A stretch of DNA of 64,000 nucleotides from Burkholderiales bacterium (GTDB lineage Bacteria; Pseudomonadota; Gammaproteobacteria; Burkholderiales; JACQAP01). A program made the position numbers and the translations under genes. The DNA lies in NCBI GenBank assembly GCA_036384015.1, contig DASVNF010000100.1, positions 5,952-69,951 of the forward strand, written 5' to 3'. Numbering within the stretch: the stretch's first letter is position 1; each line of letters opens with the position of its first letter. The notes under the pieces were generated by a model. That model had not been told where the DNA came from. It did no database searches and saw only the letters and a list, made by a program, of their open reading frames with translations. Positions 24,034 through 63,364 of this stretch are shown in pieces.

Positions 24034-24151
24034 GTGCTGAGTGCTGAGTGCTGAGTGCTGAGTGCTGAGTGCTGAGTGCTGAGTGCTGAGTGCTGAGTGC
24101 TGAGTGCTGAGTGCTGAGTGCTGAGTGCTGAGTGCTGAGTGCTGAGTGCTG
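24034..24151. repeat. Heptanucleotide tandem repeat (GTGCTGA) x16 perfect copies plus a 6-nt partial 17th
   Basis: Counted directly: units begin at 24034+7k for k=0..15, and the 17th unit is GTGCTG followed by c. The array ends 16 nt upstream of the cupin GTG start and RBS. Confidence 0.95.
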
Positions 24152-24205
24152 CAATTGGACGTTCCTGCGTATTCGCGGTTCTCCGATCTCGTTGTATTCC
24201 TCTCG

Positions 24206-24298
24206 CAGCACACAGCACTCGGTATGCAGCACGCCTTCCTTCTCAGTCACGCGTCACGCTTCTCCGTTCCCGTCACGCTTTTCTGTCACCCGCCACGC
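24206..24298. repeat. Degenerate inverted copies of the heptamer (CAGCAC motifs, 24206-24232) followed by five direct GTCACGC-like heptamers (24246-24298)
   Basis: CAGCACACAGCACTCGGTATGCAGCAC is complementary to (GTGCTGA)n. GTCACGC occurs at 24246, 24253 and 24272, GTCACCC at 24285 and GCCACGC at 24292. Confidence 0.8.
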
Positions 24299-24304
24299 GG
24301 CATT

Positions 24305-25240
24305 TCAGACCCGCGTTACCAGCGGCTTGCCGGCGAAGAACGCCGCCAGGTTGTCCACCACCAGTTGCCCCATTGCCGCGCGCGTCTGGTGCGTTCCGCT
24401 GGAAACATGCGGCTGCAGCACCACGTTGTCGAGCGTGAAGAGGGCTTCCGGCACTTTGGGCTCGGCGACGAACACGTCCAGTCCGGCGCCGGCCAGCTTG
24501 CCGCTGACCAGCGCCTCGACGAGAGCGGGCTCGTCCACTGTCGAACCGCGCGACACGTTGATCAGATAGCGCTTGCTTCCCAATGCTTCGATGACCTCGC
24601 GGCTGACGATGCGCTCGGTTTCCTTGCCGCCGGGGCAGGACACCATCAGGATATCCACTGCGCGGGCCAGATCCACCGGCCGGTCGTAAAAGTCATAGGC
24701 AACGCCTGCCTGCTTGTGGCGGCCGTGATAGGAGATTTTCATGCCGAATGCTTCGGCGCGCCGGGCAATGGCCTTGCCGATCGCGCCGAGGCCGATGATG
24801 CCGAGGCGACTGCCCGACACCTTGTCGGTCAGCGGGGCGCCGCCCTTCAGCCAGTTGCCCGCCCGCACGAAATTATCGTTGAACACCGTGCGCCGCACCG
24901 TGCTGAGCAGCAGCGCCAGCGCATTGTCCGCGACGCATTCGGTCAGCACGTCAGGCGTGTTGGTCACGGCGATGCCGAGCTCGCGCGCCGCCGGCACGTC
25001 GATGCCGTCCACGCCGACACCGAAGCAGGAGATGATTTTGAGTTTCGGAAAGCGCTTCATCAGCGCCACCGTCATGCCTTCGTGGCCCGCCGTCGCCGCG
25101 GCGGTGATGCGGCCGGCGACGGATGCGACGAACGCGTCCTTTTCCGCGGCCTCGTAGTAGCGGTGCACGGTGTAAGCGGCATCGAGTTGTTTCATGGTCG
25201 CGGGAAACAACGGGCAGATCAGCAGCAGGTCGGGTTTCAT
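24305..25240 (-). CDS. D-isomer-specific 2-hydroxyacid dehydrogenase (glyoxylate/hydroxypyruvate reductase-like)
   Basis: ORF 24305..25321 trimmed to ATG 25240. NAD-binding GIIGLGAIGKAIARR. Catalytic region INVSRGSTVDE...LDVF..EP and QPHVSSGT. Confidence 0.8.
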   Translation of the reverse strand: MKPDLLLICPLFPATMKQLDAAYTVHRYYEAAEKDAFVASVAGRITAAATAGHEGMTVALMKRFPKLKIISCFGVGVDGIDVPAARELGIAVTNTPDVLTECVADNALALLLSTVRRTVFNDNFVRAGNWLKGGAPLTDKVSGSRLGIIGLGAIGKAIARRAEAFGMKISYHGRHKQAGVAYDFYDRPVDLARAVDILMVSCPGGKETERIVSREVIEALGSKRYLINVSRGSTVDEPALVEALVSGKLAGAGLDVFVAEPKVPEALFTLDNVVLQPHVSSGTHQTRAAMGQLVVDNLAAFFAGKPLVTRV

Positions 25241-25286
25241 GTTTTGCAGTTCCTGTTGGTGAATTTTTGATCCTCCGACTTCCGGC

Positions 25287-26423
25287 TCAAAATGCGTCGC
25301 CGATGTAAAAATACCACGCATCCTCGCCCTTGACGCGCGAGTAATCGATGCTGGCGGTCACCTTGTGCTTTTCCGATGCGAGGTAGCGCAGGCCGGCACC
25401 GGCGCTGCTCAGCACGTCGGAGTCGAACTTTCCCCAGTCCGGGGCAACCTGGCCGAAGCCGGCGAAAAACACGCCACCGAAGCGATGGAAGAACGGAGTG
25501 CGGTATTCGACCTGCGCCGCATACATCGCATGATCGCGGTAACGGCCGCTGACATAGCCGCGCAGATCCTTTTTCTGCCCGAACTGGCAAAGGTCGAAAA
25601 ACGGCGCGCCGTCGGAGGCGCTGCACGCCGACATCCTGCCCGCGATCACGCCGTAGCGGCCGATGCCGAAGTACTTGTTCCACTGGGCATCGAGCAGTTC
25701 GTATTCGAGGTCGCTGCCGAGCGCTTCGTCGAACCGATACAAGGTCAGGGACGCGAACGAGCCCGAGCCGGGACTAAAACTGCTGTCGCGCGTGTCGTAC
25801 TGGCCGATCAGGCTGACGCCGACCGTGTCCACGTTGAGCTCGGACGACAGCAGGTCGTACATGGGACCCGGCGGAAGATCGGTATCGAGGGACGTTTCGG
25901 TGCCCGCGTAGCGCATGCCGGCACCGCCATAGAAACCGGCGCCGATGCGGCGCAGGACGGAGCCGAACATGGCATTGGTGCGCGTCGCGACCGGTACCGA
26001 TGCGCCGATATCGCCCGCCGTCTCGCCGATGCCGTAGAAATCGTAGTGCACGTCCGCGACGCCGGCGCCGAATGTCACCCGCCACAGGTCCTCCTTGAAA
26101 CGCAACTGCGTGCCGGCGCCCGCGATCCAGGTTCCGTTGGAAGTCACGGCCGCGCCCGCGCCGATCAGCGAAGGTTGCGTGGAGCCGCCGAATGGGAACA
26201 AGTGCAGCGCCGTCAGCGCGAGTCCGGTACCGATACTCGGGTTGGAAATCGGGATGGGCATGAAGACCCAGTCCGCGGTCGTTTTGATGCCGGTTTCGGG
26301 CTTGGGCTCGACTTCCTCCACGCCCTTGACGGGAGCGATCTCCGGCCCGGCCGCCAGTGCCGGCGAGAGCAACGGCACAATCAGCGCCAGGACCGTGCAG
26401 CGAAAGCCCCTTTTGTTCTTCAT
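25287..26423 (-). CDS. Outer-membrane beta-barrel protein (bacterial surface antigen/Omp85-barrel-like, no POTRA region seen)
   Basis: ATG 26423 overlaps the stop of the upstream gene (ATGA). Signal peptide ending PALAAGPE. Gly/aromatic-rich strands and a C-terminal YFYIGDAF. Confidence 0.6.
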   Translation of the reverse strand: MKNKRGFRCTVLALIVPLLSPALAAGPEIAPVKGVEEVEPKPETGIKTTADWVFMPIPISNPSIGTGLALTALHLFPFGGSTQPSLIGAGAAVTSNGTWIAGAGTQLRFKEDLWRVTFGAGVADVHYDFYGIGETAGDIGASVPVATRTNAMFGSVLRRIGAGFYGGAGMRYAGTETSLDTDLPPGPMYDLLSSELNVDTVGVSLIGQYDTRDSSFSPGSGSFASLTLYRFDEALGSDLEYELLDAQWNKYFGIGRYGVIAGRMSACSASDGAPFFDLCQFGQKKDLRGYVSGRYRDHAMYAAQVEYRTPFFHRFGGVFFAGFGQVAPDWGKFDSDVLSSAGAGLRYLASEKHKVTASIDYSRVKGEDAWYFYIGDAF

Positions 26424-29389
26424 TTGAGCGGCTGGATCTCGCCCGGCCGCCAAGTCCTGTCGAACCAGGGCTGCAGCGGCCCGTACAACCGCAGGATCAT
26501 GTTCCAACCCTTGCCGGGCACGGTCTGCACCCAGTTGCTTTCCCTGGCCGCCGGGGCTTCCGGCCCGAAGTACACGTCGATGGAGCCGTCGGCATTCTTC
26601 TGCAGCCCCTTGCGCTGGCTGCCGATGCTCGGAAACTGCTCGTCCGTCTGCAGCATCGAACGCGTCTGGTTGTCGTAGAGCACCAGCGACCAGAAATCCT
26701 TCGCCGGGACCTTCGGCGGCATTCGCAGCCTGTAGTTCCTGCCGCCGTCGAGGGCGTCGCCGTTCGCATCGCGGAAAATCAACCCGTACTGCGAGCCGGC
26801 GCCCACCATTTTTGCCGACATCGCGGGCGTGATGCCCGTGGCGTAGTAAAACATCCGGGTGCGTGCATCGAGCAGGCGCACACCGTCTTTCAGGAACTCA
26901 TGGCTTCCGCCGAGGAAGCCGACCTGCCACTGGCTTTTCGGGTACAGGAAGGCTTCGGGGAAACGGGAGGCGAACAGGATGGAGCGCGCGGTCGCATTGC
27001 CCACTGCGGCCGCTTCGTCGAGGATCGCTTTCATGCGATCGTCCGGATCGAACGGCGCGCCCTTGACGATGCCGATGGCCGCCAGCAATCCAAGGGATTC
27101 CGGATCCAGTGCCGCGGCGGGCTCTTCCGCAACCAGCCGGGCAACTTCGGAATAGAAGTGCGTGTTGTTCGCATGGATGGTATTGAACTCCCGTCCCGAC
27201 AGGTTCATGAATTCTCCCTGCACCGGACGCGCTTCGCCGAGCGGATAGATGCGGGCATTGCGCCTGACGTTGTCCACCGCAGGCTCGGGATCGCCTCTCA
27301 CCTTGAAGCCACGCCAGAACAGAACATTGCCGAACGTGGGCGACCGGAAGGTGTAATAGCCTTTCGGAACCTCTCCCTTGTGGTCCGGGGGCAGGAACAG
27401 GAATCTCCCGCCCTTGCCCTTGTCCGGGCCGGCGTTGCCCAGGTCGGCGACATAGTCGAACCAGCCTGTGTCGACGATGCCCAGGGTGTTGGGCGGACTC
27501 TCCACCACCATCGGGCCCTGGCTCAGATCGAGGTAGCCCAGCACATAGATGGAGTCCGTGTTCGGCGTGAGGAACAGGGATTTAGAATCCATCAGCGTTT
27601 CGAAAATGCCGATGCTGCCGTTCCCGATCCCGAGCTCACCAATGCCCTGCCGGTAACCCACCGTGGACGCGCCCCGCATGGCGTTGAGAAATGCCTCGAC
27701 CCCGCGCATGAAGTCGAGGTTGTCGTACACGAGCTGCACCGTATCCTCTGTAGGAATGCCGTCGAAGAACTCCAGGACGCCGATGCGCGTTTCGACCCGG
27801 TCCGGCGTCGTCACGTGGAGCGGGATCGCGGTGGCCATTTTCGGTCTGTAACCGGGCACCGGTTTTACCGCGGGGATATCTTCCATCTCCTCGATTTCGC
27901 CGGGCCGCCAGGTCTTGTCGAACCAGGGTTCGAGAGGACCGTACAGCCGCAACAGGGTATTCCAGCCTTTGCCGGGTATCGTCTGCACCCAGTTGCTCTC
28001 CTTGCCGGCCGGTGCGGCGGGGCCGAAGTAGACATCGACCGAACCGTCTGCATTCGTATGCAGGCCCGCCTTCCGGCTGCCGATGCCGGGAAGGCGCTGA
28101 TCGGTTTGCAGGAGCGAGCGCGTCTGGTTGTCATACACGACGAACGACCAGAAATCCCTGGCTGGCACGCCGGGCGGCAGCGTCAGCCTGTAGGTCTTGC
28201 CGCCGTCGAGCGGCCGGCCGTTCGAGTCAAAAAAATTGGACGCATACTGCGACCCGGATCCGACCATCTTGGCTGACATCGCCGGCGTGACGCCGGTGGC
28301 GTAGTAAAAGAACCGCGTTCGGGCATCGAGCAGGCGCACCCCGTCTTTCTCGAACTCGTGTCCGCCACCGCCGCTGCCTGCAAGCCAGTTGCCGTCTGGG
28401 TAGAGGCGGAAACCCGGGTCGCGGGGCGCGAACAGCAGCGAACGGGCCGTTGCGTTGCCGACCGCAGCGGCATCGTCCAGGATCTTGCGCATGCGACCGT
28501 CCGGCTTGAAAGCCTTGCCCTTCTCGATGCCGATCGCCGCGAGCAGGCCGAGCGTCTCGGGGTCGAGAGCCTCGTTGGGTTCCTCCTGCACGATGCGCGC
28601 GACCTCGTCGTAAAACTTCACGTTGCCGGCGTGGAGGGTATTGAACACCTTGCCGGACAGGTTGACGAAGCGTGTCCTGGGGGGCTCCTTGCGCTGCGCG
28701 TAGGGATACACCTTCAGGTGCTTGCGGAAGCCGGCCACGGCGGGCTTGGGGTCGCCGTCCACGAGGAAGCCGCGCGCGGCGAGCCAGACGCCATAGGTAC
28801 GCGAACGGGCAACGTGGTAGCCGGTCGGAACCTTGCCCTTGTAGCCCGGTGGCAGCACCAGGAATTTGCCGCCCTGCCCCTGGTCCGGTCCGGCATTGCC
28901 CATGTCGACGATGTAGCGGAACCAGAAGTCGTCGAGGAAGCCGAGGATGTTCGGCGGGATCTCGACCACCATGGGCCCCTTCTTCAGGTCCAGCCAGCCC
29001 ACTGCATAAACAGTTTCGGTATTGGGCGTCAGGAACAGGGACTTCGAATCCATCAGGGTTTCTGTGATACCCACCGTGCCGCCGCCGACGCCGACGCTCT
29101 TCAGCCCTTCGCGCATGGCGTACAGCGATGCACCGGGGATGGCGTTGAGGAATACCTGCACGCCGCGGATGAAATCCAGGTTGTCGTAGGCCTTCGTGAC
29201 AGTAAGCGAATCCGGAAAGCCGTCGAAAAACTTGAGTGTTCCGATGCGGGTCTCGATACTGTCCGGGGTGGTGATTTCCGGCGGAATCCCGGTCGCCATG
29301 CTGGGCGCCACCGGATCCTCCGTCTGCGCCACGGCCGAAGCTCCGAATCCCAAACCCAGCGTCAGCCATGCCGCGATCAGCTTCTTCAC
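26420..29389 (-). CDS. Secreted protein made of two tandem DUF1254-DUF1214-type modules (internal whole-protein duplication)
   Basis: GTG start at 29389 with a GGGAGG RBS. Signal peptide ending SAVAQT. The two halves align along their whole length, for example TPD.IETRIG.L.FFDG.P, YDNLDF.RGV..FLNA, ETLMDSKSLFLTPNT, GNAGPD.G.GG.FL.LPP and a WF D.TWRPGEI ending in both halves. Confidence 0.7.
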   Translation of the reverse strand: MKKLIAAWLTLGLGFGASAVAQTEDPVAPSMATGIPPEITTPDSIETRIGTLKFFDGFPDSLTVTKAYDNLDFIRGVQVFLNAIPGASLYAMREGLKSVGVGGGTVGITETLMDSKSLFLTPNTETVYAVGWLDLKKGPMVVEIPPNILGFLDDFWFRYIVDMGNAGPDQGQGGKFLVLPPGYKGKVPTGYHVARSRTYGVWLAARGFLVDGDPKPAVAGFRKHLKVYPYAQRKEPPRTRFVNLSGKVFNTLHAGNVKFYDEVARIVQEEPNEALDPETLGLLAAIGIEKGKAFKPDGRMRKILDDAAAVGNATARSLLFAPRDPGFRLYPDGNWLAGSGGGGHEFEKDGVRLLDARTRFFYYATGVTPAMSAKMVGSGSQYASNFFDSNGRPLDGGKTYRLTLPPGVPARDFWSFVVYDNQTRSLLQTDQRLPGIGSRKAGLHTNADGSVDVYFGPAAPAGKESNWVQTIPGKGWNTLLRLYGPLEPWFDKTWRPGEIEEMEDIPAVKPVPGYRPKMATAIPLHVTTPDRVETRIGVLEFFDGIPTEDTVQLVYDNLDFMRGVEAFLNAMRGASTVGYRQGIGELGIGNGSIGIFETLMDSKSLFLTPNTDSIYVLGYLDLSQGPMVVESPPNTLGIVDTGWFDYVADLGNAGPDKGKGGRFLFLPPDHKGEVPKGYYTFRSPTFGNVLFWRGFKVRGDPEPAVDNVRRNARIYPLGEARPVQGEFMNLSGREFNTIHANNTHFYSEVARLVAEEPAAALDPESLGLLAAIGIVKGAPFDPDDRMKAILDEAAAVGNATARSILFASRFPEAFLYPKSQWQVGFLGGSHEFLKDGVRLLDARTRMFYYATGITPAMSAKMVGAGSQYGLIFRDANGDALDGGRNYRLRMPPKVPAKDFWSLVLYDNQTRSMLQTDEQFPSIGSQRKGLQKNADGSIDVYFGPEAPAARESNWVQTVPGKGWNMILRLYGPLQPWFDRTWRPGEIQPLK

Positions 29390-29486
29390 GCCAATCCTCC
29401 CGGAATCCGTATTGTTGGTTTATCGCCTGCGGCGGGTGCTGCCCGGACGCCCAACATGTTACCGAAGGCGCCCGCGCCGTGCCCGT

Positions 29487-31085
29487 TCAGAGCTGCGATT
29501 CGATCGGCAGCCAGGACAGGAACCACACGCCGATGCGCCGCCAGATGCCGGCCTGGGGCTCGGTGTGATGACGCACCTCCTGTCCGTTGTCCTGCTCGAT
29601 CCATTCGATCCTTCGCGCGGTATTTGCCGCCGCTTCCGGCGGCACGAGGGCGAGCCGATAAGTGGCCCCGGCAATCCCGGCCATGAGGTCTGCAGCTCCT
29701 TGCGCCGCCAGTTCCGGGGTCTCGAACACCAGCCCGATTTCCGTATTCAGCGAAGCCGACCTGGGATCCAGGTTCAGCGAACCGACAAACAGAACTTTGC
29801 GATCGAATAGGAATACCTTGGCATGCAGGCTGGCACGCGATGAACCCCCCAGGCCCGGACCGGAACCGCCGCGCGTCTTCTCTTCACCGGGTCGCCGAGC
29901 GGTGGCCTTGACCTCGTAGAGCTCGACACCCGACTCCAGGAGCGCCCGGCGGTAACGGCTGTACCCGGCGTGAACAGCGGAAACATCTGTCGCCGCCAGG
30001 GAATTCGTCAGAATCACCACGTGCACGCCGCGTGCACGCATGTGCTTGAAGTAGTCGACCCCTGCCTTACCCGGAATAAAATACGGGGAAATGATCAGTA
30101 GTTCGCCTTGGGTGGCATCGGTGATCTTTGCGAGCTTCGGGAGCAGGTGCGTGCCCTGGTCCTGCGGGGACTGCGTGATTTTTGCCGGATCGTCGTACAA
30201 GGCCTCGGCCTTGCCCCAGAAGAACGTCAGGGAACCCGTCCGCAGGTTCTGTGCAAGCTTGCTGTTTCGCAACGCGTCCGCGTAGGTGCCCGCCCGCTGC
30301 GATTCGCCGTATTCGGCCAGGGCCGCGCGGGCGCGGTTCACATCTTTCTCCGACACCCGTTTCGATGCCAGGGCCGCGATGGGAATCGCCGCCGGGCTGT
30401 TCCAGTACAGGTCGAAGGAATCGGCCACCTGCTTCACCACCGGGCCGATGGCAAGCACATCCATGTCGGCGAAATCGAGATCTGACGCGGCCTCGAAATA
30501 CTCGTCGCCGACATTGCGCCCGCCGACGATGGTGGCCTGGCCGTCGGCGGTGAAGGACTTGTTGTGCATGCGCCGGTTGACGCGCCCGAAGTCGGTCAGC
30601 GTACCGAACAGCCGCGCACCGCGCGACGCAATGGGATTGAACAGGCGCACCTCGATATTGGGGCTGCCATCGATCAGCAGCAGGTGCGCATCGTTGGGCG
30701 CCGTCCCGAGATCATCGATCAGCAGGCGGACCCGTACCCCCCGCCCGGCGGCACGGACCAGGTGATCCAGCAGCACGCGGCCCGTGGTGTCGTTTCGCCA
30801 GATGTAGTACTGGACGTCGAGGCTGCGTTCGGCGGTTTCCGCCAGCGCCAGCCTCGCCAGGAACGCATCCCGGCCCCGCGAGAGCGGATAGGCGCCGGAC
30901 AATCCCGGATGGGCCGCCGCTTGCTCACTGGCCATGCGGCCGAGCCGTGTCCCATCGGTATCCCTCATGACATGCGACTCCTCCCGCTGAAAGTCCTTCG
31001 GAAGCGACGCACAGGCCGCCAGTCCGAGCGTCGCTGCAAGCATGCATGCAGGCGCCATCTGGAACGGAAGCAAGTATCGTTTCAT
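29487..31085 (-). CDS. Phospholipase D-family protein with two HKD motifs (cardiolipin synthase/PLD-like), probable lipoprotein
   Basis: Lipobox-like LGLAACAS. HKD motifs MHNKSFTADG and LHAKVFLFD, each followed by a GS.N.D region. Confidence 0.8.
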   Translation of the reverse strand: MKRYLLPFQMAPACMLAATLGLAACASLPKDFQREESHVMRDTDGTRLGRMASEQAAAHPGLSGAYPLSRGRDAFLARLALAETAERSLDVQYYIWRNDTTGRVLLDHLVRAAGRGVRVRLLIDDLGTAPNDAHLLLIDGSPNIEVRLFNPIASRGARLFGTLTDFGRVNRRMHNKSFTADGQATIVGGRNVGDEYFEAASDLDFADMDVLAIGPVVKQVADSFDLYWNSPAAIPIAALASKRVSEKDVNRARAALAEYGESQRAGTYADALRNSKLAQNLRTGSLTFFWGKAEALYDDPAKITQSPQDQGTHLLPKLAKITDATQGELLIISPYFIPGKAGVDYFKHMRARGVHVVILTNSLAATDVSAVHAGYSRYRRALLESGVELYEVKATARRPGEEKTRGGSGPGLGGSSRASLHAKVFLFDRKVLFVGSLNLDPRSASLNTEIGLVFETPELAAQGAADLMAGIAGATYRLALVPPEAAANTARRIEWIEQDNGQEVRHHTEPQAGIWRRIGVWFLSWLPIESQL

Positions 31086-31103
31086 TCCGGCGGACGGCGC
31101 GCG

Positions 31104-31463: not shown

Positions 31464-31540
31464 GATTCCTCCCCAATTTCGGCGCTGCAAGGATTGCCGA
31501 TTCCAGAAATACGCAGATGAATTTTCTGAGCACCCAGTAC

Positions 31541-31870: not shown

Positions 31871-31944
31871 GCGGGGCTCCGGAAGCGGTTTGGAAGGCTC
31901 CGGTAGAATGGCACGCAACAACCCAACGAACAAGGGAGGATGCC

Positions 31945-49112: not shown

Positions 49113-49164
49113 CGTTCATTCTCCAGATTCGGTTCATCTCAAGCACGGTGGTCTCACGCTTTCC

Positions 49165-49209
49165 GCGCACCACGGACAAGGGAACATCATGCTCCTTCGT
49201 TGCGCGCAG
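49165..49209. repeat. Degenerate hairpin of the GCGCACCACGAAGG / CCTTCGTGGTGCGC element family
   Basis: GCGCACCACGGA ... CCTTCGTTGCGCGCAG, similar to the arms at 50596-50609 and 52464-52479. It lies in the gap between the esterase start and the thioesterase stop. Confidence 0.5.
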
Positions 49210-49220
49210 TGGATTCCGTC

Positions 49221-50412: not shown

Positions 50413-50540
50413 GCGCCGCTCCGTAACGTGTGTTGTTTCTGCTATCCGGTGTACTTGCCGAAGCCCTTTGCGCCCCTGCCCGCAAACGGGCGTACCGCTA
50501 ACGAGTCCGGGGCGCCCTCGGCCTTCCTCAGTTAGTTATT

Positions 50541-50609
50541 CACCACGAACAATTCTTTTTCGCCTTTCTTCGTGCACCTTCGTGTTCCTCGTGCCTTCGT
50601 GGTGCGCAG
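50541..50609. repeat. Intercistronic element: CACCACGAA ... four CTTCGTG-type direct units ... CCTTCGTGGTGCGCAG
   Basis: CTTCGTG occurs at 50568, 50578 and 50595, and CCTCGTG at 50587. CACCACGAA (50541-50549) is complementary to TTCGTGGTG (50596-50604). Positions 50578-50609 are about 30/32 identical to the reverse complement of 52464-52495. Confidence 0.8.
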
Positions 50610-50613
50610 TAAA

Positions 50614-52422: not shown

Positions 52423-52463
52423 CGGGATGCTTCGCTTTTTGGCCCATACCTCATGTCGGTCTA

Positions 52464-52653
52464 CTGCGCACCACGAAGGCACGAAGAACACGAGGTGACA
52501 CAAAGAAATGCAAAATAAGAAATAGAGGCACGTCAGTGCGTTGATTTTCGCGTGAAGTTCACCCTTTTCGACTCGCCAGATCAGCCCGTTCCCACCTCAT
52601 GTTTCGATTCTCTTCGTGTTCCTTCGTGTTCTGCGCGCCTTCGTGGTGCGCGG
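52464..52653. repeat. Long-range inverted repeat of the CTTCGTG/GTGCGC element (arms 52464-52495 and 52612-52653)
   Basis: GCGCACCACGAAGG (52466-52479) is perfectly complementary to CCTTCGTGGTGCGC (52638-52651). The right arm carries CTTCGTGTTC twice in tandem. Confidence 0.85.
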
Positions 52654-52659
52654 TAGGCC

Positions 52660-53835
<1,176 letters not shown>

Positions 53836-53860
53836 AGCGTTCTCCTTTGGATCACCCAAT

Positions 53861-53971
53861 GCCGTGAAGGTGTGAATGAGTGAAAGTGAAGCAAGCGTAA
53901 AGGGGTAAATGCCTTCATGCCTCACACTCATTCACACATTCAGGCCCTCACTCATTCACGCCCTTCACGCG
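53861..53971. repeat. Intercistronic hairpin built from GTGAAGG/GTGAATGA-type units (one left arm, two tandem right-arm copies)
   Basis: Left arm: GCCGTGAAGGTGTGAATGAGTGAAAGTGAAGC. Right arm: CTCACACTCATTCACACATTCAGG plus CCCTCACTCATTCACGCCCTTCACGCG. The stop codon of the upstream fadB-like gene (TGA, 53965-53967) lies inside the outer stem. Confidence 0.85.
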
Positions 53972-56064: not shown

Positions 56065-56085
56065 GGGTACTCCGAAAAATGCGCC

Positions 56086-56242
56086 AACCGCAAAGGCGCG
56101 AAGGCGCCAAGGGGTCAAAGAAGTGCAGACATGCATTCACGTACCGCACCGGCGCAATCTCCAATGCCAACGCGAACCTGGTTTGAATTTTGCCGGAATG
56201 GTGTTCTCTGCGTAACCTTTGCGCCTTCGCGCCTTTGCGGTT
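56086..56242. repeat. 22-bp perfect inverted repeat AACCGCAAAGGCGCGAAGGCGC / GCGCCTTCGCGCCTTTGCGGTT separated by 113 nt
   Basis: The arms at 56086-56107 and 56221-56242 were checked base by base. They are internally periodic (CAAAGGCG, CGAAGGCG, CCAAGGGG). Confidence 0.9.
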
Positions 56243-56254
56243 AGTGGGATAGCT

Positions 56255-56950
56255 CTACACTTCCAGCCATTCCTTGCGAACGGCCTCGTTGCTCCTCAAG
56301 CCATCTGGCGTGCCTTCGAACACGATCTGGCCGTGCCCCATCACATACAGGCGCTGCGAGATCTTCAGGGCAATCGTCAACTTCTGCTCGACCAGCAGGA
56401 TCGACACGCCACGATTCTTGATCTCCTCGAACAGCCGGGCGACCTGCTCCACGATCTTCGGCGCCAGGCCCTCGGTCGGTTCGTCGATCATCACCAGGTC
56501 GGGATCGCCCATCAGGGTGCGGCACAACGTAAGCATCTGCTGCTCGCCGCCCGACATGACGCCGGCAGGGGCATCGGCGCGCTCCTGCAGGCGCGGGAAC
56601 AGCGTGTACATGTCATCGATGCTCCAGCGGCCCTTCTGGTTCGAGCTTTTCATGCCGAGCAGGAGGTTCTGTTTCACGGTCAGCGAAGGAAAGATGTCGC
56701 GGTTCTCCGGCACGTACCCCAACCCCCTGCGCGCGATCATGTAGGTCTTCTGCCCGCCCAGTTCCTCGCCCTTGAACTTCACCGAACCCGTCGAATTGAC
56801 CTGGCCCATGATGGACTTGATGGTCGTGGAGCGGCCGACGCCGTTGCGCCCCAGCAGACTGACGATCTCGCCCTGCCCCACCCGCAGATGGACCCCATGC
56901 AGGATGTGGCTCTTGCCGTAGTAAGCGTGCAGATCCTTTACCTCGAGCAT
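56255..56950 (-). CDS. ABC transporter ATP-binding protein, LivF-like (branched-chain amino acid/HAAT family)
   Basis: C-terminal 231 aa of ORF 56255..57385. Walker A GRNGVGRST, signature MSGGEQQML and Walker B LVMIDEP. The ATG overlaps the livG-like stop (TGATG). Confidence 0.85.
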   Translation of the reverse strand: MLEVKDLHAYYGKSHILHGVHLRVGQGEIVSLLGRNGVGRSTTIKSIMGQVNSTGSVKFKGEELGGQKTYMIARRGLGYVPENRDIFPSLTVKQNLLLGMKSSNQKGRWSIDDMYTLFPRLQERADAPAGVMSGGEQQMLTLCRTLMGDPDLVMIDEPTEGLAPKIVEQVARLFEEIKNRGVSILLVEQKLTIALKISQRLYVMGHGQIVFEGTPDGLRSNEAVRKEWLEV

Positions 56951-57702
56951 CAGTGCTGCTCCGTTCCAAGGTAGGCTTCCTGAACCGCCTTGTTGGCGCG
57001 GATGTCCTCCGGCTTGCCGGTGGCGATGACCTCGCCATAGACCAGCACGGAGATCCGGTCGGCGAGGTTGAACACCACGCTCATGTCGTGCTCGACCATG
57101 ATGAGGGTGCGGCCTTCCGTTACCTTGCGAATGAGCTCCACGGCCTCGTCGGTTTCGCTGCGGCTCATGCCGGCGGTCGGCTCGTCGAGCAGGATGACCT
57201 TGGCGCCGCCCGCGATGGTGACGCCGATTTCCAGGGCGCGCTGTTCCGCATAGGTCAGCACGCCCGCCACGCGCTCGCGGCGCTTCGTCATGCCGATGCG
57301 TTCCACGATTTCCTCGCAGCGCTCGCGCACGTCCTTGAGCGAGCCGACCCGATGCCAGAAGGAATACTTGTAGCCGAGCGACCACATCACGGCGCAGCGG
57401 ATGTTTTCGTAGACCGAAAGCTTCGGGAAAATGTTGGTGATCTGGAAGCTGCGGGCCAGGCCCTTGCGGTTGATGATTTCGGCCTCGAGGCCGTCGATCT
57501 GTTCGCCGTTCAGGTCGATGCGTCCGGAACTGACCGGGAAGCGGCCGCTGATCAGGTTGAATAGGGTGGACTTGCCGGCGCCATTCGGGCCGATGATCGC
57601 ATGGCGCTCGCCGGGTTCGATGGCCAGGTTGACGCCGTTGATGATCGAAGTCCGGCCGAAACTCTTGCGCACATCGTGCAGCTGCAGGGCCGGGGCACTC
57701 AT
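56950..57702 (-). CDS. ABC transporter ATP-binding protein, LivG-like
   Basis: Walker A GPNGAGKST, signature LTYAEQRALEI and Walker B ILLDEPTAG. The ATG overlaps the upstream permease stop (ATGA). Confidence 0.85.
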   Translation of the reverse strand: MSAPALQLHDVRKSFGRTSIINGVNLAIEPGERHAIIGPNGAGKSTLFNLISGRFPVSSGRIDLNGEQIDGLEAEIINRKGLARSFQITNIFPKLSVYENIRCAVMWSLGYKYSFWHRVGSLKDVRERCEEIVERIGMTKRRERVAGVLTYAEQRALEIGVTIAGGAKVILLDEPTAGMSRSETDEAVELIRKVTEGRTLIMVEHDMSVVFNLADRISVLVYGEVIATGKPEDIRANKAVQEAYLGTEQH

Positions 57703-58961
57703 ACGGCGCCTGCCTTCTGCAAATCCACCGTCAGGTTCTCCCAGGCACGCCGCACGACCTTGCTCGCTCCGTAGAACAGGGCGATGCCGACCGCGAATAC
57801 CGCCAGCGTGCCGATCCAGGCCGAGGCCTTCGACGGGTCCAGTTCGACGCCGAAGAAGGAGAAGGCCTTGTTGACCGATTCCTTGGCTTCGTAGTGATAG
57901 ATCATTTCTATCAGCGCGAAGAATCCGAGCATCATGACCGTCCCGGCCACGGCGGCAATCGCGTAGGACGGGAACAGGCGCGGCAGCAGGCGCGCCTTCC
58001 ACGCCGGCTTGTGCAGCGTCACCAGGTTGGCGATGCCGCCCGGCGAGAACATGATGATCACCAGGAAGAACAGGCCGAAGTACAGCAGCCAGGCCTGGGT
58101 GTAGTTTGACAGCGCCGACTGCAGCATCGTGACCAGGACTGCGCCGATGATCGGCCCCCAGAAATGGCCGACGCCCCCGATGAACGCCATCAGCACCACG
58201 TTGCCGGATGCCACCAGTCCCAGCGTTTCGGCCGTGACGATCTCGTAATTGATCGCGGCGAGGCCGCCGCCGATGCCGGCGAAGAAGCTGGCGAGCGACA
58301 TCATCAGCCAGCGCACCCGGGTCGGGTTGTAGCCGACGAACTTCGCGCGCTCCGGGTTATCCCGCACCGCGTTGGCCATGCGGCCCAGCGGCGTCCAGGT
58401 CAGTGCAAACATTGCCATCATCGACACCAGGCACCAGCCGGCAATGAGATAGTAGACCTGGATCTGCGGGCCGTAGCTGATGCCCATCACGGTGCCGCCG
58501 ACGGTGCGATTCGTGGCAATGCCGCCTTCGCCGCCGAAAAAGCCGGTGAACATGAGCGCGCTGGCCGCCACCATTTCGGCGATCCCCAGGGAAATCATCG
58601 CGAACGGCGTACCGGCACGGCGTGTCGTGACGAACCCGAACAACAGGCCGAACACCAGGCCTGCAACGCCGCCGATCAGCGGCACCATGGTGACCGGGAA
58701 CGAGAACTTGCCGGCGCCGATCAGGTTGAGGGCGTGGGCGCAGAAGAACGCACCCAGGCCGAAATATACGGCATGCCCGAAGGACAGCAGGCCGGTCTGG
58801 CCCAGCAGCATGTTGTAGGACAGGGCGAATATCACCGCGATGCCCATCTGCGAAAGCATGGACAGCGCAAAGCTCTGCTTGAACAGCAGCGGCAAGACGG
58901 CGAAGAAGATCGCAACCGCGGCCCAGAAAGCCAGCCGGCGCACGTGAAAGACCCGGTTCAT
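57699..58961 (-). CDS. ABC transporter permease, LivM-like
   Basis: Multi-pass membrane protein with GQTGLLSFGHAVYFGLGAF. ATG 58961 is preceded by GGAG, and ATG 58985 is an alternative. Confidence 0.8.
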   Translation of the reverse strand: MNRVFHVRRLAFWAAVAIFFAVLPLLFKQSFALSMLSQMGIAVIFALSYNMLLGQTGLLSFGHAVYFGLGAFFCAHALNLIGAGKFSFPVTMVPLIGGVAGLVFGLLFGFVTTRRAGTPFAMISLGIAEMVAASALMFTGFFGGEGGIATNRTVGGTVMGISYGPQIQVYYLIAGWCLVSMMAMFALTWTPLGRMANAVRDNPERAKFVGYNPTRVRWLMMSLASFFAGIGGGLAAINYEIVTAETLGLVASGNVVLMAFIGGVGHFWGPIIGAVLVTMLQSALSNYTQAWLLYFGLFFLVIIMFSPGGIANLVTLHKPAWKARLLPRLFPSYAIAAVAGTVMMLGFFALIEMIYHYEAKESVNKAFSFFGVELDPSKASAWIGTLAVFAVGIALFYGASKVVRRAWENLTVDLQKAGAV

Positions 58962-58998
58962 GCGCTCACTCCGCTGCCGGAACATCCGGGGACGTGCG

Positions 58999-59946
58999 TC
59001 ATGTTTCCCGGGTCCCCATCAGTCCGCGCGGCCGCACGATCAGCATCAGCACCATCATCAGGTAGGGCAGCACCGGCGCCGTCTGCGACACGGTGATCGC
59101 CAGCAGGCCGTGCCATGCCGAATCGCGTGAAACGTTGATGCCGATCCCCGCCAGCAGGTCCACGATCGAGTAGTCGAGCGCCACGGAAAAAGTCTGCAAG
59201 GCGCCGATGATCAATGACGCGATGAAAGCGCCGGCCAGCGATCCCATGCCGCCGAATACCACCACGACGAAGACGATGCTCCCCACGGCCACCGCCATGC
59301 CGGGCTCGGTGATGAACGCGTTGCCGCCGATGACCCCGGCCAGCCCCGCCAGCGCGGCCCCGCCTGCGAACACCAGCATGAACACCCGCGGCACGTTGTG
59401 GCCGAGGGATTCGACCATGTCCGGATGGGTCAGCGAAGCCTGAATCACGAGGCCGATGCGGGTACGGGTGAGCAGCAGGTAGAGCGCAAGCAGCATGCCC
59501 ACCGAGACCAGCATCATGAAGCCGCGGTACGCGGGATACTGGGTGGTGAACAACGTGAACAGCGTGAAATCGAGTTCCGGTGGAATCCGGTAGTCCACCG
59601 GCGCTCGGCCCCAGATCAGGTGCACCACTTCCTCGATCACGTAGGCCAGGCCGAATGTGAACAGCAGCTCGGCGACGTGCCCGAACTTGTGGACCGTGCG
59701 CAAGCCGAAGCGTTCTGTCGCCGCACCCAGCGCCCCGACGATGAGGGGCGCCAGGAACAGTGCCGGCCAGAAGCCGGTATGCAACCCGACCTGGTAGGCG
59801 AAGTACGCGCCCAGCATGTAGAAGCTGGCATGGGCAAAGTTCAGCACGCCCATCATGCTGAAGATCAGCGTCAGCCCGGAGGACAGCATGAACAGCAGCA
59901 GTCCGTAGGACAGGCTGTTCAGCAGGGTGACGAGGAAGAATTCCAT
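58999..59946 (-). CDS. ABC transporter permease, LivH-like
   Basis: Strings LLNSLSYGLLLFMLSSGLTLIFSMMGVLNFAHASFYMLGAY are typical of the LivH N-terminus. Confidence 0.85.
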   Translation of the reverse strand: MEFFLVTLLNSLSYGLLLFMLSSGLTLIFSMMGVLNFAHASFYMLGAYFAYQVGLHTGFWPALFLAPLIVGALGAATERFGLRTVHKFGHVAELLFTFGLAYVIEEVVHLIWGRAPVDYRIPPELDFTLFTLFTTQYPAYRGFMMLVSVGMLLALYLLLTRTRIGLVIQASLTHPDMVESLGHNVPRVFMLVFAGGAALAGLAGVIGGNAFITEPGMAVAVGSIVFVVVVFGGMGSLAGAFIASLIIGALQTFSVALDYSIVDLLAGIGINVSRDSAWHGLLAITVSQTAPVLPYLMMVLMLIVRPRGLMGTRET

Positions 59947-59958
59947 GTTTGGAAGGCG

Positions 59959-60037
59959 GTGATTAAGTGACTGGTGATTGGTCGCTAAATCTCTTAAGGG
60001 TACTTATTTATTACCAATCACCATTCACCAATCACGG
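59959..60037. repeat. Intercistronic hairpin built from GTGATTG/GTGACTG/GTGAATG heptamers, between the SBP and permease genes
   Basis: The left arm GTGATTAAGTGACTGGTGATTGGT pairs with the right arm ACCAATCACCATTCACCAATCAC. The inner 10 bp are perfect and the loop is AT-rich, about 30 nt. The SBP stop (TGA, 60032-60034) lies inside the outer stem. Confidence 0.85.
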
Positions 60038-61285
60038 CTTTTGGAACCTGCACGTCGTCGGCATCACCGTGGCCTTCGCCTCGATGCGCGCGTCCGTGCG
60101 AAATCCGAAACCGGTCTTCTCGACGTCGTATTTCACGTCCTTGCCGTTGGCCCGCACCAAAGTCGAAATGTACAGCGGCTGGATGACCTGGTGGTTGTCG
60201 GCCCGCACCGAAATTTCGCCGGAGTCGTCCTCATACCTGACCGTTTCCATCGCGGTCACGACTTTCTGCGTGTCCGCGGTCTTCGCCAGGTCGATGGCGC
60301 GGGCCAGTGTTTCCACGGAATTGCGCACGGACGAGTAGTACAGGTCGTCCTTGACCTCGGGAAATCGGGTGCGGTAGGCAACGGTATGTTCGGCAGCGCC
60401 TTTGCCGCCGATGTTCGAATGCCAGGTGGTTACCTGCTTGACATGGCCGACACCCGCCTCGCCGAGCGCCGTAACGACGCCGCCCGCGCCTGTGTAGTAG
60501 GTGTAATAGTCCACCTTGAGCCCGGCTTCCTTGCCGGCTTTCACCAGCAATGCCAGGTCGTTGCCCCAGTTCCCGGTGATGACGCTGTCCGCGCCGGAGG
60601 ATTTGATCTTGCTTACGTAGGGCGAGAAATCCTTGACCTTGCCCAGCGGATGCAAGTCTTCGCCGACGATCTCCACGTCGGCACGTTTCGCGGCCAGCAT
60701 GGCGCGGGCGGACTTCGCCACGGCCTGGCCGAACGAGTAGTCCTGGTTGATCAGGTAGACCTTCCTGATGCTTTTTTGCTGCGCCATGTAGTCGGTCAGC
60801 GCCTGCATTTTCATGTCGGCATCCGCGTCGAAGCGGAAGTGCCAGTAGTTGCATTTTTCGTTGGTCAGTTGCGGATCGACCGCCGCGTAGTTCAGGAAGA
60901 TCACCGCCTTGTCCGGATTGCGCTCGTTGTGCTTGGCGACCGCATCCGACAGCGCGATGGCCACGCTGGAGCCGTTGCCCTGGGCGATGTAGCGGATGCC
61001 CTGGTCGATGGCCTGCTTGAGGACCAGCAGGGCCTCCTGCGGACTGGTCTTGGTGTCGAACGCCACCACCTCGAGCTTCCTGCCGCCGAGGACGCCGCCG
61101 CGGGCGTTCACCGCTTCGGTGGCGATCTGGTAATGGCGCAGGCCGATTTCGCCGATGTTGGCGAACGGACCGCTCAGTCCCTCGATGAAGGCGATGCGGA
61201 CGGTTTCCTGCGCTGAAACGGTGCAAGCGAATCCGCACAGCCAGAGGCCAAGCAGGATCGCGGGCTTCAATTTGTTCAAATCCAT
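60032..61285 (-). CDS. ABC transporter periplasmic substrate-binding protein, type I (LivK/Leu-Ile-Val-binding family)
   Basis: ORF 60032..61651 trimmed to ATG 61285 (a nearby TTG is possible). Signal peptide ending CTVSAQE. Strings IRIAFIEGLSGPFA, FDTKTSPQ and VITGNWGND. Confidence 0.8.
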   Translation of the reverse strand: MDLNKLKPAILLGLWLCGFACTVSAQETVRIAFIEGLSGPFANIGEIGLRHYQIATEAVNARGGVLGGRKLEVVAFDTKTSPQEALLVLKQAIDQGIRYIAQGNGSSVAIALSDAVAKHNERNPDKAVIFLNYAAVDPQLTNEKCNYWHFRFDADADMKMQALTDYMAQQKSIRKVYLINQDYSFGQAVAKSARAMLAAKRADVEIVGEDLHPLGKVKDFSPYVSKIKSSGADSVITGNWGNDLALLVKAGKEAGLKVDYYTYYTGAGGVVTALGEAGVGHVKQVTTWHSNIGGKGAAEHTVAYRTRFPEVKDDLYYSSVRNSVETLARAIDLAKTADTQKVVTAMETVRYEDDSGEISVRADNHQVIQPLYISTLVRANGKDVKYDVEKTGFGFRTDARIEAKATVMPTTCRFQKP

Positions 61286-61645
61286 CTCCTCCAGGACGCG
61301 CGACGCCTCGCGACGGCAATTGCGTAACCGACCGTTACCTTTTTTGGATTGATCGCAGGAGGCGCGGTCGTCGGCGTCAATATAATTATTTATCTGTCTG
61401 TGCCACGTTCTCTCGATTCGCTCGCCGACCGGGTCGAGCGCACGGAATACATCCCTGCCGCACGCCCGGATTCTATTCGTAAACCCGAACCCTTGTAAAC
61501 CGAACGACCGGTCCTGCCACGCCCATTTGGCTGCCGATTTCCCCGCCGGAATTTCGCTCACGTGGCAGCGCAGCAATCGGGTGTCCGGGGTACCCAAGCT
61601 GCTAGAATCGGCCCCGACAAGAATGCACCGGAAAGGGAGCCCGCG

Positions 61646-63286
61646 ATGCAAGGCCTGATGATGGAAATGCCGCTGCTGATCTCATCGCTGATCAAGCACG
61701 CGGACCGCTACCACGGCGACACCGAAATCGTATCCCGGATGGTGGAAGGCGGGATCCACCGCTACACCTATCGCGACGCGCACCGCCGAACCCGCCAGCT
61801 GGCCAATGCCCTGACCCTCCTGGACGTGAAAATGCACGACCGGGTCGCCACCCTGGCCTGGAACGGCTTCCGCCACCTGGAGGCCTACTATGCAGTGGCC
61901 GGCATGGGCGCCGTATCCCATACCGTCAACCCGCGCCTGTTCCCCGAGCAAATCGTCTACATCGTCAATCACGCGGAAGACCGCTACGTCTTCCTCGACC
62001 TGACCTTCGTCCCGTTGGCCGAGGCCATCGCCGACAAATGCCCCGGCGTGAAGGGTTGGATCATCATGACGGACAAGGCGCACATGCCGCAGACCAGGCT
62101 GAAGAATGCGCTGTGCTACGAGAACCTGATCGAGGCGAACAAACCCGATTTCGAGTGGCCGGACTTCGACGAGCGCACCGCCTCTTCGTTGTGCTACACC
62201 TCGGGCACCACCGGCAATCCCAAGGGTGTGCTCTACAGCCATCGCAGCACCATTATTCATTGCTACGCGTCCAGCATGCCGGATGCGCTGAACATCTCCG
62301 CCCGCGACGTCATCCTGCCCGTGGTGCCCATGTTCCACGTCAACGCCTGGGGCCTGCCCTACTGCGCGGCCATGGTCGGCGCGAAGATGGTATTCCCCGG
62401 CGCCGGCCTGGACGGTGCCAGCGTGTTCGAGCTGTTCGAGAAGGAGAAGGTGACGGTCTCGGCCGGCGTGCCGACGGTGTGGATGGGCCTGCTCAACTTC
62501 ATGAAACAGAACAACCAGCGCTTCAGCACCCTCAAGCGCACCGTGATCGGCGGTTCGGCCTGCCCACCCGCTATGATCCGCAGCTTCGAGAAGGATTACG
62601 GCATCCAGGTCATCCATGCCTGGGGCATGACCGAAATGAGCCCGCTGGGCACGGTGAACACCTTCAAGGTCAAGCACGACGGCTGGGACGCGGAGCAACG
62701 CCTGGCCCTGCAGAACAAGCAGGGCCGCGCCATCTACGGCGTGGACATGAAAATCGTCGACGACCAGGGCAAGGAGCTGCCCTGGGACGGCAAGGCGTTC
62801 GGCGACCTCCTGGTGCGCGGCCCCTGGATCTGCGCCGAATACTTCAAGTCCGAGGGCGGCAATCCGCTGCGCAAGGACGAGCATGGGCACGAGTGGTTCC
62901 CGACCGGGGACGTCGCCACGATCGATCCCGACGGCTACATGCAGATTACCGACCGCTCCAAGGATGTCATCAAGTCGGGTGGCGAGTGGATCAGCTCGAT
63001 CGACCTCGAAAATGCGGCGGTCGGCCATCCCGCGGTTGCCGAAGCGGCGGTGGTCGGGATCCGGCACCCGAAATGGGACGAACGGCCGCTGCTGGTCATC
63101 GTCAGGAAGAAGGATGCCCAGCTGACGCGCGAGGAAATGCTCAAATTCTTCGAGGGCAAGGTGGCGAAGTGGTGGATGCCCGACGACGTGGTGTTCGTCG
63201 ACCAGCTTCCGCATACCGCCACGGGAAAACTGCTGAAGACCAAGCTGCGCGAAGACTTCAAGGACTACCAACTTCCCACGGCCTGA
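61646..63286 (+). CDS. Acyl-CoA synthetase / fatty-acid--CoA ligase (AMP-binding family)
   Basis: ORF 61562..63286 trimmed to ATG 61646 with a GGGAG RBS. AMP-binding motif [12 protein letters not shown], and WGMTE, TGD and SGGEWISS. Confidence 0.9.
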
Positions 63287-63290
63287 AAAT

Positions 63291-63364
63291 CCGTGAACGC
63301 CGTGAATGTCGTGAATGCCGATCCAGAGCCCCAAGGGGGTTACGACATTCACGACATTCACGGG
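63291..63364. terminator. Bidirectional terminator-like hairpin with a 17-bp perfect stem made of tandem CGTGAATGT units
   Basis: CGTGAATGTCGTGAATG (63301-63317) pairs perfectly with CATTCACGACATTCACG (63346-63362). It is followed by GGGCTTTTG on the plus strand and GGATTTTC on the minus strand. It sits between convergent stops at 63286 and 63374. Confidence 0.7.

Follow-up and report, generated by a model that had tools for sequence, protein, structure and literature searches.

The closest description to the elements reported here is that of the inverted GGGAATC heptamer arrays of Xanthomonas. This genus and Nostoc (GGGGA(C/T)T) carry intergenic tandem arrays of 7-nt simple sequence repeats (Rehm et al. 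2015, PMC4692102). In Xanthomonas, two convergent arrays form an inverted repeat in 70-75 cases, the G-rich array lies on the coding strand 0-50 bp after the stop codon or overlapping it, and the arrays are under-represented between divergent open reading frames (ORFs); four units are preferred, the number and sequence of the units vary between close relatives at the same gap, and the function is not known (PMC4692102). A second comparison is offered by repetitive extragenic palindromic (REP) elements, whose unit is an imperfect palindrome of 20-40 nt that usually bears a GTAG or CGTC tag (PMC2817692, PMC3116915, PMC3733652), and a third by the eukaryotic Foldback-type transposons FB, Galileo and Tetris, which have internally repetitive inverted repeats and known P or MULE transposases (PMC3573991, PMC4079207). 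Here we analyse a 64-kb stretch of DNA (the window; contig DASVNF010000100.1, 63% GC) from an uncultured soil Burkholderiales lineage, in which intergenic spacers hold hairpins whose arms are tandem arrays of 7-10-nt units. Our data are best explained if these hairpins are intact or decayed copies of a foldback type of small, dispersed, non-coding repeat, with inverted tandem arms and a centre of variable length, a reading to which we give a probability of about 60%. The nonamer family described below (family A) is probably a dispersed, mobile foldback element.

An unbiased scan of the window for inverted repeats (arms of at least 16 nt, complementarity of at least 78%, loop of at most 220 nt) returned ten. 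Six of them (24137-24220, 52461-52656, 53865-53942, 56086-56242, 59967-60028 and 63291-63363) are loci of an original prediction, made from the sequence alone, which had proposed a single architecture at eight or more intergenic loci. Periodic arms, defined by a self-periodicity of at least 0.78 at lag 7, 8 or 9, were present in five of these six and in none of the four inverted repeats within coding sequence. Thirty first-order Markov resamples of the window yielded a mean of 4.1 inverted repeats, none with periodic arms. The tandem-arm inverted-repeat architecture is real and far from chance.

RNA folding compared with dinucleotide shuffles gave z-scores of -10.8 for 52455-52662, -7.0 for 56080-56250, -7.3 for 59950-60040 and -3.8 for 53840-53970 (all on the minus strand), and of -6.3 and -6.6 on the two strands for 63284-63372. 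The segments 50536-50613 (z = -1.3), 49113-49220 (-1.5) and 24016-24304 (+0.7) folded no better than their shuffles. Hence, as judged by the scan and the fold scores together, strong periodic-arm hairpins are present at five of the eight loci (52.5, 53.9, 56.1, 60.0 and 63.3 kb); the 24-kb locus is a weak hairpin, made up of a 16-35-nt inverted repeat and a one-sided expanded array, and those at 49.2 and 50.6 kb are decayed remnants.

On the minus strand between 48 and 61 kb a Pfam scan finds livKHMGF-like ABC transporter genes and, after them, genes of beta-oxidation (fadB-like, thiolase, acyl-CoA dehydrogenase (ACAD), short-chain dehydrogenase/reductase (SDR), thioesterase and esterase). A 2-hydroxyacid dehydrogenase gene is met by a convergent plus-strand acyl-CoA synthetase gene at 63.3 kb, and another stands in succession with a cupin gene (Cupin_7 domain) on the minus strand at 24 kb. 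The elements of the nonamer family A, of a heptamer family (family B) and of the 24-kb locus are as follows.

24034-24151, minus strand: expanded arm of the 24-kb element, 16.9 units of GTGCTGA on the plus strand and (TCAGCAC)n in the sense direction (Tandem Repeats Finder (TRF), period 7, 100% matches).
24198-24232, minus strand: short partner arm of three to four degenerate CAGCAC-type units, pairing by complementarity with the inner end of the GTGCTGA array.
24239-24298, minus strand: irregular GTCACGC array (sense GCGTGAC) adjoining the 24-kb element (TRF, period 20, three copies).
49163-49212, minus strand: degenerate family A remnant of CACGAAG type in the thioesterase-esterase gap, with termini ACTGCGCGC...GCGCGG and one unit per arm.
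50540-50609, minus strand: one-sided family A remnant in the ACAD-SDR gap, listed as an unpaired right-arm cluster.
52458-52659, minus strand: full family A element of the CACGAAG sub-type in the thiolase-ACAD gap, arms at 52458-52520 and 52597-52659.
53861-53971, minus strand: family B hairpin in the fadB-thiolase gap, with GTGAATGA / GTGAAGG units and a lag-8 periodicity of 0.80/0.90.
56086-56242, minus strand: full family A element of the CGCAAAG / CGCGAAG sub-type in the livF-fadB gap, termini AACC...GGTT.
59959-60037, minus strand: family B hairpin (GTGATTG / GTGACTG / GTGAATG) in the livK-livH gap, periodicity 0.89 at lag 7.
63286-63368, no strand assigned: family B hairpin (three units of CGTGAATGY) in the convergent acyl-CoA synthetase / 2-hydroxyacid dehydrogenase gap, folding equally on both strands.

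As had been observed before, an element or a remnant is present in each minus-strand gap between 49.1 and 60.0 kb that exceeds 40 nt, and the close-set liv junctions are free of them; over the first 49 kb of the window gene ends have ordinary hairpins or none. The 52.5-kb element has a centre of ~76-130 nt, 33-nt arms at 91% and an RNA fold of -102 kcal/mol, and the 56.1-kb element has 27-nt arms, 96% complementary and 103 nt apart, with a fold of -85.3 kcal/mol. The 50.6-kb remnant has lost all but TCACCACGAA of its left arm; on the right it keeps four units of CTTCGTG together with the terminus GGTGCGCAGT. The 63.3-kb hairpin, with arms of 22-27 nt that are 85-95% complementary, looks like a bidirectional terminator from its AAAA and TTTT flanks. 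At 24 kb the arm pairings are 77-82% complementary, the best (24137-24152 with 24205-24220) reaching 94%; the GTGCTGA array (24034-24151) lies directly upstream of the ribosome-binding site and GTG start (~24015) of the cupin gene, and no complementary partner was found for the GTCACGC array at 24239-24298.

A different unit had been proposed for each locus, which proved overstated, since the window holds two or three unit families. Family A has the consensus C-R-C-R-R-A-G-G-N and occupies four loci (49.2, 50.6, 52.5 and 56.1 kb), the CACGAAG units of the first three and the CGCAAAG/CGCGAAG units of the last being variants of C[AG]C[AG][AG]AG. Using this motif to search for paired arrays, we found 71 in 1.25 Mb, made up of the window and 78 related loci (denoted by L numbers). 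Each arm consists of about three units of C[AG]C[AG][AG]AG plus 1-3 nt, three being the commonest number and the 9-nt period being regular, with arms of 27-60 nt and a total length of 70-250 bp. Units are homogeneous within one element and different between elements (CACAGAG, CGCAAAG, CGCCAAG); those of relatives include CACAGAGGA, CACGGAGGA, CGCGGAGGA, CGCAAAGGC and CACGAAGG, and each sub-type has its own termini, for example GAACCACGGAG...CTCCGTGGTTC and TCACCGCAAAG...CTTTGCGGTGA. Family B, at 53.9, 60.0 and 63.3 kb, has the consensus GTGAWKG, that is GTGA(A/T)(T/G)G, with 7-8-nt units (GTGAAKG and related) and short loops. GTGAAKG hairpins stand at the orthologous fadB-thiolase gap of five relatives (L011, L012, L015, L038 and L049), and in all the unit occurs in at least four different gaps, the family as a whole recurring in several gaps of relatives. 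The GTGCTGA unit occurs once in the window, at 24 kb. One relative (L019, ~16860-17040) has two adjacent arrays, not mutually complementary, in its thioesterase-esterase gap, the first of about twelve GTGAATG-type units and the second of six or seven TCCTCAG units.

The sequences had also been held to be locus-specific, with no common consensus. Our comparisons contradict this, as the families share consensus and termini at many loci, in many genomes and in other phyla. The nearest relatives of the window FadB belong to metagenome-assembled genomes (85-95% amino-acid identity), and the genes flanking the elements form a syntenic operon conserved across relatives, not cassettes. In the closest relative (L001) five gaps in a row hold one element each, and in L008 the livF-fadB gap holds an element of near-identical arm type to that of the window at 56.1 kb. 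Two copies in L015 are ~96% identical over ~197 bp, with sharp boundaries (CTAACCGCAGAGG to CCTCTGCGGTGA) and unrelated flanks. Furthermore, a centre of ~137 nt is common to copies in five different gaps of different genomes, enclosed by CACAGAG, CACGGAG or CGCGGAG arms, and the centres of an orthologous pair (L014 and L047) match in inverted orientation.

Orthologous gaps may also be empty or reduced to a stem base or solo arm: L023 retains GTTCAAC|TGCGTTTCAAG, L038 one unit, and L031, L032 and L011 solo arms. The thioesterase-esterase gap, which holds a remnant in the window, is empty (12-18 nt) in eight relatives and has a full element in others, and new copies were found beside old solo arms. 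These data show that the families spread between sites without target-site duplication and that orthologous gaps gain and lose them.

Comparison of orthologous spacers, which the original prediction had recommended, showed that unit number varies between relatives and that both arms change together. The capacity of one arm to expand, inferred there from the 24-kb copy, is borne out by the 16.9 GTGCTGA units (TRF) that face three or four in the partner arm, and unequal counts of 7/3, 2/6 and 5/2 occur in relatives. The simplest explanation for differences in unit number would be replication slippage, and concerted change could come about if, in DNA folded as a hairpin, the sequence of one arm were copied into the other. 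A 27-nt nested palindromic insert that is mirrored in both arms of the L003 element likewise suggests that one arm was copied from the other. Paired arms of this kind would be a natural system for the study of slippage and of conversion between palindrome arms.

A second, much smaller palindromic repeat family (ATACCCCCTTGAGGGGTA, ATACCCTCGCGCAGCGTGGAGTACCCTTTTAG, GATACCCTACGTGCGTAGCACGTAGGGTATC; ATACCC...GGGTAT) is found nested inside foldback arms, and some of its copies have GTAG and are REP-like. Its sites are L003 ~5115-5310 (livF-fadB), L013 (livG-livF), L048 (livF-fadB), L019 and L040 (both fadB-thiolase), L018 (thioesterase-esterase) and L055 11268-11298. Separately, a 1.35-kb segment of L125 that bears an aldo/keto-reductase-like gene lies between the halves of a perfect inverted repeat (2200-3850; at least 50 nt, (CACGGAGGA)3 arms included) and might be invertible or mobilised.

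Family A extends beyond this lineage. The 25-mer CACGGAGGACACGGAGGRCACGGAG, i.e. (CACGGAGGA)2-3, is present in at least 120 metagenome stretches; among the matches listed the contig GC ranges from 0.46 to 0.76, and 79 inverted pairs have the same AACC/CACC termini. One contig with elements belongs to the Bacteroidota (Chitinophagaceae-like neighbours) and one to the Gemmatimonadota. In the cultured Gemmatirosa kalamazoonensis 21 kb of chromosomal sequence hold three elements, and the two megaplasmids have at least 40 and at least 34 matching places (roughly 35-40 per Mb). Among 72,556 plasmids the only other matches were in Bacteroides ovatus, with one element between gmd and the fucose synthase gene, and B. 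finegoldii; a BLAST of the 52.5-kb element of the window against this collection gave nothing.

Twenty IMG/VR viral contigs (L200-L219) also matched, in most cases through a solo (CACGGAGGA)3 with no inverted partner within 230 nt, and are uninformative as to a viral vector; groups of them have a recurring upstream flank, such as ...GGGTGTCAAAGACTAGGATTTAAC or ...TGCGTTTGGGGAATCATGATTTAAC, and a few hold coding-type or longer tandem arrays. In L145 (6122-6484, the Bacteroidota contig) and L091 (1-300) a three-unit arm lies within a larger tandem repeat, with periods of ~100 and 84 nt. On the G. kalamazoonensis chromosome (L199, 9859-10000) a direct array of four 15-nt units (GTCCCGCAGTAAGGC) occupies a spacer upstream of a sugar isomerase gene, adjoining gaps that hold foldback elements.

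The placement of the elements is biased. They lie at gene 3' ends, as had been predicted, beginning 12-30 nt past the stop codon and finishing 15-35 nt ahead of the next start codon; the copies inside operons are followed immediately by the ribosome-binding site of the next gene. The stop codons of fadB (53965-53967) and livK (60032-60034) fall within the outermost units of the 53.9- and 60.0-kb hairpins, again as predicted. None of 16 divergent acs-livK gaps has an element, despite a median length of 352 nt, whereas four of eight convergent gaps do, and co-directional gaps are filled in 10/21, 13/35, 15/37, 16/30 and 8/18 cases (up to 53%); with the co-directional counts approximately pooled (77/200), divergent and co-directional gaps differ at p ~8e-4 (Fisher test). 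Elements number 0.26 per kb within the operon, as against 0.12 per kb beyond it. This bias fits a REP-like life in transcribed 3' spacers, and the elements occur almost only in such spacers just past stop codons, in co-directional or convergent gaps and not in promoter-bearing divergent ones. In the window, the element-free divergent gap upstream of livK contains a good sigma-70-like promoter match (TTTACA-18-TAGAAT) at 61470-61499 on the minus strand.

A second regularity is the polarity of the arms. Of 53 periodic inverted repeats with arms of at least 18 nt, 51 have a purine-rich 5' arm and none a pyrimidine-rich one, against 207 vs 176 among non-periodic control inverted repeats. For family A, purine-first pairs outnumber pyrimidine-first pairs by 46 to 0 and by 50 to 4, and at least two of those four (L096 and L109) are neighbouring elements, as probably are all four. 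The mean purine content of the left arm is 0.67-0.71. We infer that the reverse order would cause Rho-dependent polarity: a pyrimidine-first arm would expose C-rich, G-poor RNA and could load Rho before its complement is made, which may be why the purine-first order is kept. This strict polarity is common to the Xanthomonas heptamer arrays and provides a testable rule on the hairpins tolerated in transcription units.

The Xanthomonas and Nostoc arrays share with the present elements the convergent pairing of arrays, the location of the purine-rich array on the coding strand within 50 bp past the stop codon and the rarity in divergent gaps. This common layout with the GGGAATC arrays (PMC4692102), together with GGGGCTA, GGGACTA or GGGGCGA units in some relatives, is what favours an interpretation of our elements as non-B DNA (G-quadruplex/i-motif or cruciform) acting at the DNA level, as proposed for the G-rich heptamers of those genera. 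We consider it scarcely probable, as the window units GTGAATG, GTGATTG, GTGCTGA, CACGAAGG and CGCAAAGG have no runs of three or more G, so that a G-quadruplex is not expected, and arms most often have three units, where Xanthomonas prefers four. The consensus units GTGAWKG, GTGCTGA and CRCRRAGGN likewise lack G3 tracts. The present elements differ further in having 8-10-nt units as well, and family A in its conserved termini, transposable centre and multi-phylum range.

Several points weigh against reading these hairpins as copies of foldback-type dispersed repeats. About 59 ORFs were scanned against Pfam, and no transposase or mobilising gene was found among the main ORFs of the window. Nor did an autonomous parent element emerge from 1.9 Mb of loci: seven pairs of far-apart arms in metagenome contigs, tried as candidates, flank ordinary metabolic genes with no transposase between them. 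In L040 (6022-10169) the arms of the ACAD-SDR-gap element are split by a 4.1-kb insert of ~52% GC, as against ~62% in its flanks, and this candidate parent holds hypothetical ORFs only, with no transposase domain. Target-site duplications were absent from 49 of the 71 family A copies and 1-2 nt long in the rest, which is the chance level, and none was seen in comparing the two L015 copies; classical DDE transposition is therefore excluded. Within one genome the arms are much better conserved than the centres, which could mean selection on the arms by a trans-acting factor. Finally, in family B the arm mismatches on the sense strand are G·U in 19 cases and A·C in 8 (one-sided p = 0.026, from orthologues that are not independent), and outgroups carry an ordinary GC hairpin with a T run at the same livK-livH position, so that some of these hairpins may be selected RNA structures.

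The family B wobble bias and the outgroup hairpins speak for an alternative in which the hairpins are RNA regulatory structures (mRNA stabilisers, RNase III sites or terminators, including bidirectional ones) that evolved locally and were lengthened at each locus separately by duplication of units in each arm, slippage being the easiest mutational route to a longer stem. At the livK-livH gap, where relatives have heptamer hairpins of other units, these form a chain of single-base steps (GTGACTG - GTGACGA - GTGGCTA - GGGGCTA - GGGGCGA - GGCGCGA) with both arms changing together, as this alternative would have it; the A and T runs on either side of the 63.3-kb hairpin between convergent genes, and the absence of elements from divergent gaps, agree with it as well. 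Family A, however, shows no wobble bias: its sense-strand mismatches are G·U in 31 and A·C in 39 cases, or 14 and 20 at unit positions 2, 4 and 5, and there is thus no sign of selection for pairing of the sense RNA, which was rejected for this family on these counts. Locally evolved structures also fit poorly with the recurrence of the same arms, termini and centres outside orthologous loci and in further phyla, with GTGAAKG units recurring across different gaps, and with the many relatives that have no element or a fragment only. A scan for intrinsic terminators, which require a GC-rich stem, a short loop and a U tract right after it, flagged none of the elements, only 63286-63368 having TTTT and AAAA flanks. 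On balance we regard a local RNA origin as rather unlikely. Together, the lack of a wobble signature in family A and the many relatives that lack elements or keep remnants argue against an indispensable RNA function, and the evidence on the nonamer family speaks for persistence as near-neutral or selfish DNA rather than for a selected RNA structure. For the heptamer hairpins the wobble bias and the outgroup hairpins leave room for an RNA-level role, and they may carry some constraint of this kind.

The conservation of the arms might alternatively reflect a trans-acting protein, or the ribosome, reading the unit on DNA or RNA, with the arms as arrays of binding sites. Mismatches between family A arms never fall at unit positions 1, 3, 6 and 7 and vary at 2, 4, 5, 8 and 9; near-identical arms occur in copies with unrelated centres, and the regular period and preferred number of units would suit such an array. 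We take ACACGGAGGA to fit the RsmE/CsrA consensus (A/U)CANGGANG(U/A), and every family A unit has a Shine-Dalgarno-like RRAGG. A CsrA, Shine-Dalgarno or anti-Shine-Dalgarno reading is suggestive for CACGGAGGA and fails for the CGCAAAGGC, CACAGAGAA and CGCCAAGAC variants and for the Bacteroidota, in which Shine-Dalgarno pairing plays little part and CsrA is in general missing. Units that are homogeneous within an element and different between elements would not be accounted for by a tolerant binder, the motifs would be paired rather than exposed in the folded RNA, and no candidate protein was identified. With the family present in the Bacteroidota as well, we find such binding-site arrays quite improbable.

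The absence of target-site duplications bears on two further comparisons. Bacterial MITEs (miniature inverted-repeat transposable elements) that reside in operons, such as Chunjie of Geobacter and Correia/NEMIS, are non-coding, 100-250 bp long and co-transcribed, with terminal inverted repeats. The present elements resemble these DDE-type MITEs in size, in terminal inverted repeats, in a small non-coding body and in occupying intercistronic gaps without breaking the operon. Assignment to a MITE of a DDE insertion-sequence family was rejected: terminal repeats and a small body are present, but there is no fixed-length target-site duplication, no insertion sequence is known to match them, and their inverted repeats consist of tandem sub-repeats of variable number.

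REP, BIME or REPIN elements moved by a REP-associated tyrosine transposase (RAYT, TnpA-REP) encoded elsewhere in the genome would, by contrast, leave no target-site duplication, as expected for HUH/Y1 enzymes. They share with our elements a high-copy extragenic distribution past stop codons, in co-directional and convergent gaps and away from divergent ones, the coexistence of sub-families in one genome, and doublets that form long hairpins, an architecture that is REPIN-like here. In addition, the 52.5-kb copy, and this copy only, is flanked by CTAC...GTAG. The arms, however, are non-palindromic, purine-rich tandem arrays without self-complementarity, so that no REP-type hairpin would form in each arm; the termini are (G/T)AACC, CACC (TCACC) or GGCC and not GTAG or CGTC; there is no Y1 transposase in the window; and the truly REP-like repeat is the separate small palindrome that inserts into these arms. 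The original prediction had named membership of a known REP or BIME family with a common consensus as a finding that would overturn it. A common consensus does exist, which goes against the prediction in spirit, but it is not that of a known REP/BIME family, and with non-palindromic arms and no GTAG/CGTC tag the elements fall outside the REP definition. We therefore hold an ordinary REP or REPIN identity to be very improbable.

By architecture the elements are most like the eukaryotic Foldback transposons. Both have short tandem sub-repeats in the arms, arms of variable or unequal length, a variable or near-absent centre and inversion between the arms; the eukaryotic elements are far larger and have target-site duplications, so that the resemblance is one of architecture only. 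Among other heptamer repeats, the cyanobacterial short tandemly repeated repetitive (STRR) sequences and the TAACTGA repeats of Beggiatoaceae, Cyanobacteria and Bacteroidetes form 169 direct sets and one indirect set (PMC4679880). They too are short tandem intergenic units with a patchy spread across phyla that suggests horizontal transfer, but they are direct arrays just upstream of start codons, not inverted pairs past stop codons.

Other known classes were rejected. The termini fit neither the R'' (RYYYAAC) nor the R' (GTTRRRY) core of integron attC sites, and a likeness of GAACCGCAGAGG...CCTCTGCGGTTC to helix 45 of 16S rRNA was judged coincidental. BRE of Bordetella, a ~90-bp tandem repeat for which no inverted-repeat structure is reported, is set apart here by its description, as the sequence is not printed (PMC3110155), and the intrastrand-triplex motifs are G/C-rich, were studied in Escherichia coli and have another architecture (PMC4666352).

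The comparison with Rfam that had been called for gave no matches at the gathering thresholds for the window or for 14 loci, and relaxing the cut-off to E<=1 brought up no family for 49.0-63.5 kb; copies from Gemmatirosa and Bacteroides reached only sub-threshold eukaryotic miRNA hairpin models. Full-text literature searches with arm 14-16-mers returned only unrelated eukaryotic primers, and no description of a bacterial foldback-type element was found. Family A is present in at least two other bacterial phyla and is apparently unnamed. A bolder proposal, to which we would give appreciably less than an even chance, is that the nonamer element, (C-R-C-R-R-A-G-G-N)x3...inverted with AACC/GGTT-type termini, represents an undescribed kind of bacterial foldback-type mobile DNA across at least the Pseudomonadota, Gemmatimonadota and Bacteroidota. 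It would move in a hairpin-dependent manner without target-site duplication, by way of some enzyme or of host replication and repair, and its purine-first polarity would be the price of operon life, for example through the avoidance of Rho loading. If true, such movement by a novel mechanism would add a type of bacterial mobile DNA.

Inside operons the elements are presumably co-transcribed, and their RNA would be able to fold into stems of 20-60 bp. Any effect on the host would for this reason resemble that of REP elements, whether as a barrier at the 3' end, as a site of processing or through partial termination. The expression of operons, the rearrangement of genomes and the quality of assemblies are shaped by short intergenic repeats, which are hardly catalogued outside a few model organisms. 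In a widespread soil lineage as many as half of the gaps between the cistrons of a conserved operon are occupied by the present family, which is also found in a gut Bacteroides and, having no Rfam family and no description that we could find, is currently invisible to annotation.

Elsewhere in the window, two Orn/Lys/Arg decarboxylase paralogues adjoin two amino-acid permease genes (7211-9469, 11815-14115, 14155-16413 and 16430-17761), and the permease at 14155-16413 is fused to a C-terminal SBP_bac_3 solute-binding domain.

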